Below are positions 37,381-61,995 of a stretch of 64,000 nucleotides of DNA, piece by piece. Position numbers and translations under genes: made by a program. The DNA is taken from contig OZ024740.1 in the NCBI GenBank assembly GCA_964016885.1, positions 364,126,001 to 364,190,000 of the forward strand, written 5' to 3'. Source of the DNA: Eledone cirrhosa (taxonomy: Eukaryota). Numbering within the stretch: position 1 is the stretch's first letter; every line of letters begins with the position of its first letter. Below the pieces are notes generated by a model. The model was not told where the DNA came from. It ran no database searches and saw only the letters and a list, made by a program, of their open reading frames with translations.

Positions 37381-39598
37381 ACCATCAGTTAATCCCAAAA
37401 CAAAACTATATCCGGACAAGACATTTACTTTATATTTTCAAATATTTATTTACTTATCAACAACTTCTCAGGCAACTGTTTGGTTGCCTACTCTTTCTTT
37501 CTCCTCCCCTCTCTCGCTCTCTCACTATTTATCTACGCCTGTTTTATTTTTTTCCCCTCTCACTTACTATCTCTCTCCTCTCTCCCACTATCTAAGTACT
37601 CATGCCTTCCCCCCTATTCGTTTCTCTCACTTCTACCTCGGTTCTTTTCTCCTCTGACTCACTATGTATTTCTCCCCTATCCCCCACTATCTGTCTATCT
37701 ACCTATCTATCTACTGCTTTTTCATTTACTTTTTGTTGACCCCTGCTCTCTCTCCTTCTCCCTCACCCCTATCCATCTACCCCTGCTCTCCTTTCTCTCT
37801 CTCTCTCTCTCTCTCTCTCACTTACTATCTATCTACCCCCTACTTTCTCTCCGTCTCACACACACACTTTCTATCTATTCCTGTCCCCCCCCCCCCCACA
37901 CACACTATTTATCAATCCCTGTCACCCCACCCCTCCTATTCGAAGAAACGGAAAAATACAGTAATTTTAAAAAGAGCGAAAAAATAATTTAACCAAAAAT
38001 TATAAACATGGTTTTCCATTACGAAGCATTGACAAATTTGAAAATACGTTTTTTTTTAAGGCGGTCACAAATCAGAGGCGGTGTGTTGGGCCTCCATCAG
38101 ATCCGAGGAATTTTCCAGTTGTTCGAACAGCAGTTGTCAACGGAACAGCTTGTTCATGAAATTAACATGCAAGTGACCGAGCATTCCACAGATTCGTGTA
38201 TCATTAATGTAGTTCTCAGGAAGATTCAGCGTGACACGTGTAATAAAGCTGGTTCCTTTGATTTACATGCACAATTTATTTTTGACAGTTGAGTGAACCG
38301 GGGCAACATGAAATAAAGTGTCTTGCTCAAGGATACAATGCATCGCCACGAAATGAACTTTCAACCTTACAATCGAGAACCGAACCCCATAACCACCAAT
38401 CCACTCGTCTTCACATATTGTTAATAGTCGAATGCATCGAGTTAAGTACCCCCTGGAGACGGAACAAAAGTAGACAATGCGACGGTTTTGTTCATCTTTA
38501 TTGCCGTCACCAGAAATCCTTTATCCGATGTAGTATTCGATTATGTGGTTAGGGTATTCGGCTTCCAACCGTAGGGTTGTGAGTTCGATTCCCGTGGCGT
38601 GTTGTGTCGTTCCGTTGATCGGATTAGCTGGAATACACGTCATAGTAACTTACGGAGTGCCTCATCATTCGACTATGTTTATACTTCATATGCATTGTGA
38701 CTGCCTTCAAAAAGTAAAACGTAAAGTAAATTGTTGTTAGTAAATAGCCTATCAACCCAGACAAGTGCCAGCCGAGACGCATATCAATCAAGGGGCGTGT
38801 TGAGTTAATAGTGAAATATATGTAGCGACGTGGTTATATTTCCGGTGGCAGTACATATATGACTTAAACGAAATACTGATTAAATGGTTCCTACATTGCA
38901 GATATTTTCATAGGCATCTGAGTGTGTGTGTCTGACTATGTACGGTGTACGTATGTAGGTATGTGGAGGGGTGAATGGTTGAGAAGTTCGCTTTAGGTAG
39001 ACGTAAAGTGTTTGGAAGCCTGAATCTCCCTGAGAATTGTGTTAAGGGTGCACGTATCAATAAAATGGTCAGCCACTTACATGTTAATTTCTTGAACAGG
39101 CTGATACGTTGACAACTGAGACATACATAAATATACAAAAATGAACACAAACATATGAAACTGACACATGCCTAACATTCACATAACTCATTCAACAGGC
39201 ATGCTGGGATAAAATCATGAGCATTAAAAGAGCTCTAAAGTCATAACTCAAGGGAAATTACTCTAAAGGAGTTAAAGGGAAATAACTCTTTCGACCGCTA
39301 TATCTGATTTGCTAAGCTGTCTGAACGTAATGTTATTACTCTGGGGTCTTTCCTCATCTGAGTGCTCAAGCTACAGACCGATTATGCATATACGCTAGCT
39401 TGGCCGTATTCTAAAGCTTCGTTAATGCTGTTCTAAAATTTATAAATATATATATATATATATATATAATGTAGGAGGTGAGTTTTATTGTAGTACAATA
39501 AAGCAATGCAGATATCGGATAATAAGCACTCTACAATTTGTAGGACTGGAGTATACATAATATATAAGAACAAAAGATGGTTAAAAGAGTTCCATGTA

Positions 39599-39665
39599 TT
39601 TTATTATGCGCATTTCAAAAACAAATATCATCATGCAATAATATTTGTGTTTTCATCAGATAAAA
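39599..39665 (-). ncRNA. Minimal type-I hammerhead ribozyme (family 1)
   Basis: Reverse complement: ttttat-CTGATGA-stem II-GAAA-tgcgca-TA-ataaaa. Confidence 0.8.
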
Positions 39666-39776
39666 CATGAAGACATGATATGAAGGTTAAAAAACATATG
39701 AAGGTTAAAAAACATATGTTGATTTAAAACTGAACTATCCACAAGTGTTTTTTAACCTTCATATCATGTCTTCATG

Positions 39777-39843
39777 TTTTATCTGATGAAAACACAAATA
39801 TTATTGCATGATGATATTTGTTTTTGAAATGCGCATAATAAAA
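39777..39843 (+). ncRNA. Minimal type-I hammerhead ribozyme (family 1)
   Basis: Stem I ttttat/ataaaa; CTGATGA; stem II aaacacaaatat...atatttgttttt; GAAA; palindromic tgcgca; UA. Confidence 0.8.
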
Positions 39844-58523: not shown

Positions 58524-58600
58524 CAGGGTGTCCCAAAAATGTATACACACTTCAATAGTATTCTGATAAATATGTGTATACATTTTTGGAGGACACCCTG
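58524..58600. mobile_element. 77-bp Tc1/mariner micro-MITE
   Basis: TA|cagggtgtcccaaaaatgtatacaca ... tgtgtatacatttttggaggacaccctg|TA. Confidence 0.8.
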
Positions 58601-61600
58601 TATGTATTAACGTAAAGACAAACAATGTTGACCAGTAAAACTAAAATGCGGAGTATTTCTAAGATATAGTATGGAACTATAACTAATATGTTGCTACCCA
58701 GAATTCTAAGAATTCATTAGCAGTAGTACTAACACAGTGTGATTTTAAATAGAGGTATTTATGAGAGCATAAACAATATGATTATGCACAATATACATAC
58801 ATAGTATTTATGTTAATACTACAGCTAATTAAAACTACTCCATTAAGCTTGCACTATATGCAAATAAGACATCATCAAAAATGTATTATTTGCAAAATCT
58901 CTATATAAGAAGCATTAAATTCTATACCCCAGTACTGAATGAGTGAGCATCACTGATGATGGATTATATTGAAATTTATAGATCTCGCATTCTCACAGGT
59001 AACTAATATAATCACAGCTTAAAATACAATGAGACTATGTATGTTTATTATAGGGGAAGCATATGTTAAATGATGATGATTGTGTATGCCTCCATATATA
59101 CCATATATACTTCTCTCTTGCCCCCCCCCCCCTCTCTTTATATACATATATATCATCATCATCATTGTCTGCTTTTCCATGTTTGCATGGGTTGGATATA
59201 TATACATCATCTGATCATCTAATTCCTCAAGCATCACGGAAACAGGTCACTATATATATATATATGTATATATATATATATAGAGAGAGAGTGATGTGCC
59301 TTCATATACACCCCTATTTTAGGAATTCAATTATATGCTATTTGGTAAGTTAGTTTGAGTTGAAGTGCAATATTTAATCTATTGTAGCTATAAAGCTGCA
59401 TGTGTAAGAAGTGCCATGATTTATGGGAGTGAGACGTGGGTGATGAATATGGTGCAGTAGAGAAGCCTGGAAAGAACGGAAATGAGTATGGTCCAGTAGA
59501 TGAGTGGAGTATTGCTGAGAGAGGAGAAAAACAAACAGTGAAATACAGAGAATGATGGGAATAGAGCTTGTAAAATACAGATAACATTCTGTGGTACCTA
59601 TTTCCAGCAGTTTGGTGAACCAAAACATAGATACAGTAAAAAACAAAAATCCTATGGTAGATTTAATCTCAAGACCCATAAAACAGTGGTTGAATATGTT
59701 ATCTACTTAATTATTTTATTTTGATTGAACAGCAGGGCATAAATAGAATGAATTTACTTCTAACCAATTCCTAACAGCAGAACTAAATGCTGATTTCTCT
59801 ACTGATTTCAATTCCTACCTTTCAAAGTAGAAAATCTATATTTTCTTGCTTGTACATGTTACATGAAGGATAGAACCAATACCTGTTTCATGGGCTTTAA
59901 GTGACTGAAAGTATAAACCTTCTCCCTGGATGGGACATCATCCATCACAAGGCTAATCCCCAGCTGTTGCTATTGCTTGTACACATTTTCAGCTGAGAAA
60001 GCTGGAGCAACATGAAATGAAAGGCCTTACACACATCATGTCATTTAGTCTGGAACTCAATCCCTTTAAACTTATGATCATATCCAAAACCCACTAGGTT
60101 CCATGCCTTTACAACTGCTTAAGTATATGTGTGCATGTGTGTGTGTATATATGTGTATGGGAATGTGTGTGTGTGTGCATGACCTGTGAATGCAGAGGTT
60201 ATACAAAGGCTGGAGAGAAAAGCGAGCATGCTTCATTGGCTGTGCAATGTTAATGCGCATAAATGACAAAGTATGGATATGAAAGAAAAGCTGGATATAA
60301 GAGGAATCAGATGTAGTGTGCAGGAGAAAAGACTTGTATGGGTATGTGATGCAATGGAGGATCATTGGATGAAGAAATTCCAAGAAATTCAAATGAAAGT
60401 ATGCTGGTGTAGAGGAAAACCAAGGAAGACCTAAGAGATGAGATGAGAGCTGATTTCAAAACACAGATGATGCAAAGCAATGAGTAGAAGGATGGTGTGC
60501 TGGATAAGACATGTCCAACTCATGCAGGCGTAGAAAAGCAGACACAAAATGATGATGTTGATGATAAACAAATCTCTCTCTCTATCTCTCTCTCTCTCTC
60601 TCTCTCTCTCTCTCTCTCTCTCTCTCTCTATGGTATGAATCGAAATTGTAGCTGCCATATGGCAGATAATAATTGAGTTGTTTGAGGCACTCAATGGATC
60701 AAGAAGCTAAACATTATCGTTCGGAGTAAAACACAACAGTTAAAAAGGGTGACACCAAGAAAAACAACCTAATGCAATGGCCATACTTATATTGCTAGCT
60801 TCATATTGGAAACAGGTACAGGGAATTCAATAGGCTTCCAAACAGTTTCCATCTATACACTTTTACTCACAAGACTTGATTTGTTGAGTTGACCCTAGGC
60901 TTTGGTAAATATCACTTGCCCAAGATATCATTCAGTAGGATTGAACCTACAATTTTATGACTGAGTAGCAAACTTCTTAATTATTCGACCATGCTATAAC
61001 CTTTCTTAGAACATTGTTTTTTTGTTTGTCGTTAACTTAATATAATATTTTTTTGTGTTCAAATTTTGAATCTATTCTTCTATTTCTTGCATTTGTGGCT
61101 TTTGGAGTAATTAGTTTACAATGATAGTTTTTTTATTATTATTATTACATTGCCATTAATGTTATTTATGCATTCCCTTGAAAATATTTCCAACAAATTT
61201 TTATAATTTAAACATTTTAAAACATAAATATTCTCTACACATACATGCACACACACATGCACACATACAATTACATATGTGCACACACTTACATGCATGC
61301 ATGCACATATGTGCTGACTGTTTTTCTTTGACTTAATAATACTTTTTCTTTCAATCTTACGTAAGATTGAAATCTTACTTCTGGCTTGTGTTTTATGCTC
61401 TCACTCTTTTTGCCTTCTCTCTCTCACTCACACTCTCTCTCTTTCTCTCTCTCTCTCTCTCTCTCTCCCTCTCTCTCTTTCTCTCTTTGTTTCTCCCTCC
61501 CTTTCTACTTTATATATGTGTATGTTTGCTTCTTTGTGTTTATGAATATAAATACTGGTAAAAGAGTATATATATATATATATATATATATATTAGGGTA

Positions 61601-61668
61601 AACATTGATGCAATTCAATTCAAGCACTCAACGTACTTTTTCCACATAGGAGTGACGGAGTAAATATC

Positions 61669-61995
61669 GAATAAGGAAAAGCGAAGTAGTTTCAGATGTT
61701 CAAGTCCTTTAATAATAATGCTGTGATATATATTTCAGTGACAACACTGGCCACACTGTTCTGTGTGCGAGTGTCGTGTCATCATCAGACAGCTTGTTAC
61801 ATAATAAGGTTATGTTTCCAAGGCGATCCAATTTGGATTGCCTCGGAAACATAACCTTATTATGTAACAAGCTGTCTGATGATGACACGACACTCGCACA
61901 CAGAACAGTGTGGCCAGTGTTGTCACTGAAATATATATCACAGCATTATTATTAAAGGACTTGAACATCTGAAACTACTTTGCTTTTCCTTATTC
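61669..61995. repeat. Near-perfect ~325-bp palindrome between (TA)n tracts
   Basis: Arms mirror around gatccaatttggattg (~61835). Confidence 0.95.
61871..61944 (+). ncRNA. Hammerhead ribozyme (family 7); mirror copy at 61720-61793 (-)
   Basis: gctgt-CTGATGA-long stem II (tgac..acact..cacac/gtgtg..agtgt.tgtca)-GAAA-tatata-TC-acagc. Confidence 0.8.

Follow-up and report, generated by a model that had tools for sequence, protein, structure and literature searches.

Fold-back insertions carrying hammerhead motifs and the 3' ends of Penelope-like elements in (TA)n repeats of Eledone cirrhosa

Penelope-like elements (PLEs) of metazoans have been shown to carry minimal type-I hammerheads with a short palindromic helix III and a long helix II, with many families per genome and with dual motifs on opposite strands, 100–700 bp apart, that were ascribed to truncated PLEs (Cervera and de la Pena 2014, PMC4209133; this and the other comparisons below concern excerpts of the cited papers). 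Hydra-clade elements, which are C-terminal EN+ PLEs and include Hydra-1_Obim, combine a hammerhead with a single RT-endonuclease (RT-EN) ORF, which has a DKT motif, a CxCX5C linker, CxxC and CxH around the E and N residues and no CCHH; they target (TA)n and show an inverted 5'-truncated copy and a one-sided tail (Craig et al. 2021, PMC8557442). For the low-copy Penelope elements of Adineta vaga, the explanation offered was self-priming (Arkhipova et al. 2013, PMC3846280). The protein of a Poseidon element from Anolis, PAc, which belongs to another clade, is a predicted dimer and extends both strands of an AT-rich target, starting at two sites that bound the tail, with a hammerhead just upstream of these starts; in vitro, the start sites used on the top and bottom strands were alike, and the two sites were not tied to inversions (Frangieh et al. 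2024, PMC11167929). Animal non-LTR retrozymes are non-coding tandem units of 170–400 nt that contain a type-I hammerhead, yield abundant linear and circular RNA and are proposed either to derive from PLEs or to be moved by them (PMC7229834, bioRxiv 10.64898/2026.07.22.740005).

We analyzed a window of 64,000 nucleotides of Eledone cirrhosa (GCA_964016885.1, OZ024740.1, positions 364,126,001 to 364,190,000), in which a preliminary description had noted a dense field of hammerhead-bearing fold-backs and left it open whether this was already described for the genome. Earlier papers already describe hammerheads in inverted pairs, tails on one side only and the targeting of TA (PMC4209133, PMC3846280, PMC8557442), and how PLEs come to have their inverted repeats and tails is there called an open question (PMC8557442). 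A literature search conducted mostly outside subscription papers found no Octopus hammerhead survey, PLE twin-priming model or PLE-RNA structure. What the present analysis adds is a rule by which the two arms of an insertion end differently, the observation that either arm may be the longer, variants common to partner arms and a short stem found after both ends.

Hammerhead motifs and insertions in the window

A CUGANGA...GAAA...UH motif with a closing stem I is present, within 2–8 nt, at every position given in the preliminary description (Table 1). A strict type-I descriptor retrieved eight hammerheads in 39470–61995 (five in family A, two in B and one in D) and none in 1–39469, compared with a mean of 0.013 and a maximum of 1 over 300 dinucleotide shuffles. 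In the region, 14 matches to a loose core pattern were counted, where the genome rate predicts 1.8; genome-wide, there are 238,214 core motifs against 45,383 in the control, an excess of ~193,000, and hammerhead-like motifs are of the order of 10^5, far above the counts in PMC4209133. Families C, E, F and G were missed by the first descriptors because these demand 10.1–11.1 pairing; unlike the hammerheads of PMC4209133, most families here lack G10.1-C11.1 and have A-U, U.U or A.C instead, and stem III is longer in C and F, whereas the extra nucleotide before stem II of family B has its counterpart there. Family C has a marginal stem II of 3 bp (U.U closing, about 0 kcal), and in the F copies of the window this stem is weak (A.C closing). 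An Rfam search at E<=1 gave 48 matches, none of them to a hammerhead family; the best, to microRNA-precursor models, were rejected, as these had matched perfect hairpins with scores below gathering. Judged from the sequence and its predicted pairing, the type-I hammerhead motif is present in the pLTRs.

Table 1 Features identified in the window (positions are those of the whole stretch)
Feature	Position	Strand	Details
A head-to-head insertion	39470..39882		minus: tailed arm, core 39659, predicted cut after 39605; plus: short-end arm, core 39783, predicted cut after 39837
B (Neptune-like) 3' end, short end	40872..41123	-	one minimal hammerhead, core 41057, extra G before stem II
Diverged A insertion	41129..41350		minus: tail-only arm; plus: short-end arm, one hammerhead, core 41260
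D insertion, left part	41447..41681		minus: short-end arm, intact hammerhead, core 41545; plus: hammerhead 5' half, core 41641
Helitron remnant	41682..43600	+	PIF1 helicase; 5' TC, 3' hairpin, GTAG
D insertion, right part	43601..43750	+	remaining hammerhead, short-end position, 91-nt tail
A 5'-truncated PLE	44228..46462		minus: short end, core 44320; plus: inverted tailed pLTR 46211-46462, core 46275
Family A ORF, C-terminal 284 aa	45361..46215	-	linker CxCX5C and Hydra-type GIY-YIG-type endonuclease (by motifs); no Pfam match
C hairpin	46533..46712		minus: tailed arm, core 46654, GAAC for GAAA; plus: short arm, core 46666, stem I 4 bp
Eighth fold-back, H	46831..47028		90.6% inverted repeat; about 80 nt extension of right arm
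E insertion	47060..47482		minus: tailed arm without CUGAUGA; plus: short-end arm, one hammerhead, core 47377
Second C hairpin, other subtype	47851..48045		fold-back point just upstream of CUGAUGA; tail on plus arm
B insertion	48226..48587		minus: short-end arm, hammerhead core 48409; plus: 44-nt arm, 59-nt tail
F insertion (540-bp non-coding unit)	51183..52130		minus: tailed arm, one whole unit, core 51510; plus: short-end arm, core 51890
G insertion (1.3-kb non-coding unit)	61593..61995		minus: tailed arm, core 61788; plus: short-end arm, core 61876

The insertions are flanked by TA runs, as the preliminary description had it, and 176 of 210 motif matches end at such a run (background 21%). 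Its pairing of motifs needs correction at two places: 41019 and 48371 belong to separate insertions on the same strand, and 46660 and 47915 to two separate hairpins. The catalytic core, said to be kept throughout, retains GAAA, UH and a stem I of at least 4 bp at 15 of 18 core sites under relaxed, family-specific parsing, with departures such as the GAAC in one copy of the C hairpin at 46533 and the stem I of C 47851–48045, which the fold-back shortens to 3–4 bp on both strands. Most insertions in the window have hammerheads that are cut, mutated or interrupted; in the second D hammerhead, the Helitron at 41682–43600 entered between A and T within stem III. That either strand encodes a ribozyme holds, as sequence, for four insertions only (A 39470, A 44228, F and G), the others being incomplete; A 41129, E and both B copies have a single hammerhead each. 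A read-through transcript of a whole hairpin would meet the antisense arm first, and full pairing of the core is predicted, which would mask the ribozyme; by prediction, forcing the ribozyme fold costs 34–124 kcal/mol in five read-through hairpins compared with 1–7 in three isolated motifs. Among the sequencing runs listed for family A, none was from RNA, and contigs from two runs of one study, compared with 39300–52300, yielded no information on RNA ends.

Coding and non-coding families

The fold-backs carry the 3' ends (pLTRs) of PLEs. The proposal that several PLE lineages enter (TA)n and leave inverted, hammerhead-bearing ends was borne out, and families A–D could be tied to PLE ORFs. The insertion at 44228–46462 is 97% identical to full-length family A copies and contains the endonuclease half of a PLE ORF, so the hairpins are not all protein-free as had been supposed. 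For this ORF (45361–46215), a first look gave 62,770 candidates; all 150 that were scored showed 98–100% identity, some in frames of 821 aa, and the same hammerhead pLTR adjoined the ORF in all 12 full-length loci retrieved. Each family has between 367 and 27,663 exact occurrences of its 27–33-nt motif, and the reversed control has 0. The pLTR layout of a partial tandem and an inverted 5'-truncated copy was found in these elements.

The family A unit of about 3.7 kb encodes an intact 821-aa Hydra-type protein in a single ORF, with an RT, a GIY-YIG endonuclease at its C terminus and homologues of ~700 aa (n=185). Its YRDD and Y-x12-YFG motifs are present, with one Cys between the two Tyr motifs, and a motif scan found DKT, the CxCX5C linker, CxxC-E and N-CxH, and no CCHH. 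The ORF was not recognised in Pfam or solved-structure searches; because Pfam gave no relevant match, the domain names come from motifs and a by-eye likeness to the alignment in PMC8557442. In the Hydra-type comparison, the C and D proteins align at 32–56%. Motifs and alignment thus place A, C and D as putative members of the Hydra clade, with which they share the ORF layout, DKT, linker, CxxC and CxH without CCHH, hammerhead, (TA)n target, inverted truncated copy and one-sided tail (PMC8557442). That clade has RWK and is generally <3 kb, whereas the position reads RWT in the larger family A and RWR in C; tails there are 30–40 nt as opposed to 59–146 nt here, and by eye both the protein and the hammerhead of Hydra-1_Obim differ from those of family A (PMC8557442). 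The family B ORF, translated at locus L264 and read by eye, has a CX2-5CxxC linker and CCHH in its EN, motifs that suggest a Neptune/Nematis-type, Neptune-like PLE. B and D ends lie after an RT/GIY-YIG ORF and C lies before one (partial ORFs in all three).

Families F and G are non-coding tandem units with PLE-type ends, that is, retrozyme-like non-autonomous PLEs, and E is probably a unit of the same sort, on the basis of two copies. The F unit measures 538–540 bp, and 14 of 16 read-through copies come back to the hammerhead; the G unit of about 1.3 kb is whole in 22 of 25 copies, with no PLE protein match in any of the 25 and one array of four; the E unit is about 2400 bp. PLE protein matches near E, F and G motifs were discarded as coding parts of these families, since they lie beyond TA runs or on the opposite strand, and were taken to belong to neighbouring insertions. 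Monomers of 540, ~1300 and ~2400 bp fall outside the 170–400 nt of retrozymes, from which E, F and G differ also in that most are two-armed insertions with PLE tails, either single or in partial tandem (PMC7229834, bioRxiv 10.64898/2026.07.22.740005). The suggestion of a retrozyme-like non-autonomous class thus survives in altered form, the mobile unit being a 540-bp or 1.3-kb repeat and not the hairpin. Between families there is no BLAST similarity, in line with the preliminary description; A and D nevertheless have a common stem I, and A, C, D, E, F and G a common tail motif.

This motif, a short RCTC...GAGYRC stem, lies downstream of both ends in coding and non-coding families and is missing in B and after the C long end; its definition was made by eye from these very sequences. 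Hairpins lack the signal downstream of the long end, while read-through copies keep it. We infer that the stem is a start-site signal and that Hydra-type proteins may move the non-coding E, F and G units.

Two 3' ends and the origin of the fold-backs

Across all seven families, there are two fixed 3' ends, with a bimodal distribution and tails of 59–146 nt. Among 125 unique head-to-head insertions, 112 pair a short with a tailed arm, and among the 99 with TA on both sides this holds for 96, the remainder being short with intermediate (2) or short with short (1), and never tail with tail. The short-end limit in this classification was moved from +14 to +20 nt after it emerged that, in family A, ends had continued into TA by chance; in unselected loci, the rule holds in 49 of 50. 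A tail on one arm, described as 'often' seen in the Hydra clade (PMC8557442), is here the state of 96 of 99 insertions, each with exactly one tailed arm. At least 108 of 210 motif matches have an inverted partner within 1.5 kb, a lower bound as long, nested and very short partners are missed. Either arm may reach further: in families A, B, E, F and G (n=88; several C and D rows, where coverage-based junction calls failed, are not in this count), the short arm is longer in 43 cases, in 37 of them by >100 nt, the tailed arm in 21, and the two are equal in 24. Stem II variants agree between partner arms (A and D, P=5e-5; C, 8e-4; G, 0.0017), with B and E uninformative, F failing with two of four rows mis-parsed, and one C pair (L291) discordant; the partner is the strict nearest neighbour of only 35 of 126 arms. 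This likeness could alternatively reflect one dominant source gene per period or later conversion between arms.

The fold-backs are best explained, with a probability of about 0.62, as 5'-truncated head-to-head PLE insertions in (TA)n, likely made by twin priming on the same RNA from two fixed starts. The PLE link of A–D, the non-coding F and G units, the two 3' ends, the arm rule, variable junctions, TA flanks and matching arms form its observed basis; a single RNA template, twin priming and joining by microhomology or added bases are what we infer from them. The element protein would cut both strands of the TA target, and two reverse transcripts, one per cut strand, would be primed on the same RNA at two fixed start points, for which the RCTC...GAGYRC stem may be the signal; the inner ends of both copies would then be joined through microhomology or added bases. 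Every insertion would leave fresh TA flanks and so promote clustering. E, F and G would be carried in trans by Hydra-type proteins. The hammerhead would be carried in the hairpins as a passenger; in full elements its role would be to cleave the precursor RNA, probably in dimeric form or aided by protein. PAc offers a precedent in its two tail-bounding starts, AT-rich target and extension of both strands, although neither a pairing of start site with arm nor a duplicated signal is reported in the available text (PMC11167929).

The same elements could instead prime themselves, a cDNA (or an antisense RNA, as Arkhipova et al. 2013 proposed, PMC3846280) folding back at a palindrome and copying itself, with a tail left on one side once the endonuclease has trimmed one end. 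This model, treated together with palindromes in PMC3846280, fits the variants common to partner arms and the 21 tail-longer and 24 equal cases, and PMC8557442 puts the tail down to EN-mediated resolution; furthermore, the junction hot spots in A and G lie at natural palindromes, among them the short one at which G 61593–61995 folds back. One family A hot spot, ~160 nt upstream of the short end, holds 18 of 29 short arms, many of these rows having been chosen with that stretch as query, and four of four unselected hairpins agree; either a palindrome or the 5' end of an RNA could account for it. Many junctions, however, show added bases and no palindrome. The short arm is often the longer, and a copy snapped back from a short-ended strand has nothing to copy the tail from unless both ends start long and one is always trimmed. 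With 96 of 99 insertions pairing short and tailed arms, either arm the longer, common variants and a stem at both ends, twin priming is favoured and self-priming seems unlikely.

Transposition of the hairpins as units, a self-standing non-autonomous class of MITE-like or retrozyme-like kind as the preliminary description had suggested, is largely refuted and now highly improbable. Hairpins do cluster at 416–450 nt in family A and at 183–216 nt in C, and the first 100 matches listed include 27 inverted pairs, of which 8 by hand count are spaced at 241–251 nt. Insertion lengths nonetheless span 183–7071 nt as a continuum and junctions vary between copies, even within the 416–450 nt cluster, which argues that hairpins are made anew at each insertion; the uniform size and identical internal junction of a MITE-like element were not seen, and the signal downstream of the long end is absent from hairpins and present in read-through copies. 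Even less probable is that the host retains the hairpins for a function, as genes for ribozymes or small RNAs: the genome-wide excess of core motifs and the double-stranded RNA that near-perfect hairpins could give speak for it, against which stand the damaged state of most hammerheads here and the predicted fold penalty. Junctions coincide with the hammerhead cut site only loosely, in two or three family A rows.

Seen by itself, the arrangement is ordinary PLE debris, and its value lies in the material: a young family whose intact ORFs are nearly identical, one arm rule that holds in seven families, a candidate start-site signal common to non-coding parasites and ~10^5 hammerhead-like motifs. 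The young intact family, the arm rule and the candidate signal make twin priming testable against self-priming with a PAc-type assay. More tentatively, and at somewhat less than even odds, twin priming may be obligate in Hydra-type PLEs, with two copies of the stem 6–13 nt downstream of the two start sites, each placing one subunit of a dimeric RT-endonuclease that extends one strand of the cut (TA)n target, and with non-coding ribozyme parasites of 0.5–2.4 kb that exploit the enzyme by retaining both stems; a single rule would then account for the inverted repeat and the one-sided tail of PLEs, and the carrier of retrozyme-like elements would be identified.

Apart from the seven families, the window contains the fold-back H (46831–47028), which is absent from the preliminary description and has a hammerhead-like motif of which each arm contains just the 3' half.

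Hammerhead motifs and their abundance

The region from 39.4 to 62 kb of the window is a series of TA runs separated by insertions. The hammerhead motifs reported there in the preliminary description are real and exceed shuffled sequence, as a strict type-I descriptor retrieved 8 hammerheads in 39470-61995, none in the window's first 39.5 kb and at most one in each of 300 shuffles. Under relaxed, family-specific parsing, GAAA and UH are kept and stem I spans at least 4 bp at 15 of 18 core sites; an Rfam search detected none of these motifs. Stem III is palindromic in families A, D, E and G and family B has an extra G ahead of stem II, two characteristics of the minimal hammerheads of Penelope-like elements (PLEs) described in PMC4209133. 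Stem II is marginal in family C and weak in the window's family F copies. The suggestion that either strand encodes a ribozyme held, at the sequence level, for 4 of the 11 insertions originally listed, which carry a complete motif on both strands, but not for the remainder. The second family D copy is interrupted by a Helitron, whose excision would rejoin both halves directly.

Genome-wide, exact motif matches numbered 14,271 (A), 4,513 (B), 27,663 (C), 3,921 (D), 4,648 (E), 999 (F) and 367 (G), compared with none for the reversed-motif controls of all seven, and a loose core pattern gave 238,214 matches vs 45,383 for its control. Among the matches listed for the first 3 Mb of OZ024740.1 were additional, likewise abundant D-related families, absent from the window, with a different stem II and frequent inverted pairs.

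Association with PLE reading frames

Searches with the family A endonuclease frame gave 62,770 first-look candidates; the 150 that were scored shared 98-100% identity, several lying within 821-aa frames. At 12 loci with a frame of this type, the same hammerhead repeat was found on both sides of the ORF, together with inverted partners and TA flanks. A motif scan of the protein found DKT, CxCX5C, CxxC-E and N-CxH, which section 11 of PMC8557442 gives as marks of the Hydra clade; the same source already includes in that clade an Octopus element that favours (TA)n. The one protein relative bearing a name was from an argonaut. Family C lies upstream, and family D downstream, of broken frames related to that of family A, while family B lies downstream of a different, Neptune-like RT-EN with CX4CXXC and CCHH.

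Families E, F and G appear to be non-coding. With 34 PLE sequences as queries, no protein match was obtained in 16 family F read-through copies (those running past the long end) or in any of 25 family G read-through loci, although with such queries a very distant parent protein might escape detection. Family F repeats with a period of 538-540 bp, and 14 of the 16 copies extend back to the hammerhead. The 1.3-kb family G unit is complete in 22 of 25 loci, its longest sense frame from ATG being 116 aa. The family E unit (~2.4 kb) contained no frame of 90 aa in the only two read-through copies found.

The attribution of inverted ribozyme-bearing ends to PLEs agrees with arrangements already in print: PMC4209133 (2014) ascribes dual minimal hammerheads, on opposite strands 100-700 bp apart, to truncated PLEs, and PMC3846280 (2013) and PMC8557442 (2021) describe an inverted PLE end (pLTR) with a one-sided tail. 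Targeting of (TA)n by Hydra elements (2021, PMC8557442) and non-autonomous PLE derivatives and retrozymes (2020, PMC7229834; 2021, PMC8557442; 2026, bioRxiv 10.64898/2026.07.22.740005) have likewise been described. The kind of element is known, and its members here are, as far as we have seen, uncatalogued. A literature search, with subscription papers and preprint supplements outside its reach, retrieved no strict arm rule, PLE twin-priming model or duplicated stem.

Insertion architecture and its possible origin

In each family the 3' end takes two fixed positions, short and tailed, 59-146 nt apart. Among 125 unique head-to-head insertions, 112 paired a short with a tailed arm; of the six tail+tail rows, five were internal read-throughs in which the outer end was not reached. 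Short+tail pairing accounted for 96 of 99 insertions with TA on both sides, none of which was tail+tail, and for 49 of 50 unselected loci, against roughly one half expected if ends were chosen independently. By hand count, all 27 close opposite-strand pairs among the first 100 family A matches listed were head-to-head. Of 210 motif matches, 176 ended in TA (background 21%) and 108 had an inverted partner within 1.5 kb. Insertions measure 183-7071 nt; their junctions vary among copies, often with a few added bases, and have hot spots at natural palindromes. The hairpins therefore arise at insertion rather than being copied as units, which argues against the self-standing mobile class envisaged earlier. 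Owing to the head-to-head layout, transcription reading through from either flank would reach the antisense arm before the sense arm. The predicted cost of imposing the hammerhead fold is 34-124 kcal/mol in five hairpins vs 1-7 for three isolated motifs, and the hammerheads are predicted to be inert within hairpins.

We infer, with a probability of about 0.6, twin priming: a dimeric PLE protein would start two cDNAs on one RNA, which would then be joined to each other. According to PMC11167929, PAc, the Poseidon PLE protein of Anolis, is a dimer by prediction, cuts and extends both strands, and has two start sites that bound the tail, but these sites did not differ between strands and hammerhead mutants still showed insertion. 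The main rival, self-priming with trimming (set out in PMC3846280), seems less likely. Among 88 insertions of families A, B, E, F and G (C and D being excluded because of failed junction calls), the short arm was the further-reaching one in 43 and the tailed arm in 21, whereas in 24 the two differed by no more than 30 nt. Fold-back copying of a first strand that started at the short site would provide no template for the tail, so at least the 43 require either a second start on the RNA or, as self-priming would need, a long start with trimming of one end. The quantified short+tail rule makes this open mechanistic question testable.

In families A, C, D and G, stem II variants matched between partner arms more often than between arms paired by shuffling; B and E had no variation, F was mis-parsed and one C pair was discordant. 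Median partner distance was below between-insertion distance in six of six families compared, although only 35 of 126 arms had their partner as strict nearest neighbour. An RCTC...GAGYRC stem, a motif defined by eye, starts 6-13 nt past 9 of 12 readable ends (background ~0.5%), in coding families A, C and D and non-coding E, F and G, and is present in the window's family G tail as well. It was absent in family B and after the family C long end, and it is also lacking from the one-sided extension of the eighth fold-back. On visual comparison, a Hydra consensus from a coral ends with the same stem.

Other features

Positions of individual features in the window and at other loci of the contig or genome
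Feature	Position	Observations
Transposase-like frame	window 6862-7604	short, between 107-bp inverted repeats; no Pfam match; presumably Tc1/mariner-like, from its motifs
39-bp array	window 10458-12416	50 copies; several frames open
Direct duplication	window 27064-28470 and 28786-30207	~1.7 kb, near-identical; same frames in each
Non-LTR retrotransposon remnant	window 34188-37277	GC-rich (53-58%) vs AT-rich surroundings; RVT_1, C-terminal C/H-rich and endonuclease-like stretch
Helitron remnant	window 41682-43600	PIF1 helicase frames; GC hairpin then GTAG at 3' end; exactly within palindromic stem III of family D hammerhead
Inverted pair	window 44228-46462	encloses 284 codons of endonuclease frame
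Eighth fold-back	window 46831-47028	both arms with hammerhead 3' half only; extension on one side
SINE-like repeats	window 47511-47830, 49555-49680, 52166-52500, 53410-53600	very high copy
48-bp arrays	window 62620-62837	similar to the 39-bp array
Family G two-armed insertion	OZ024740.1:130885968-130892590 (fetched loci L298-L302)	one arm a tandem array of four 1.3-kb units
GC-rich stretch in family G unit	fetched locus L266:2830-2870	palindromic GCGC motif ~150 nt upstream of hammerhead; possible internal promoter

One type of SINE-like repeat also lies within several of the family G tails at other loci, splitting them at similar positions.
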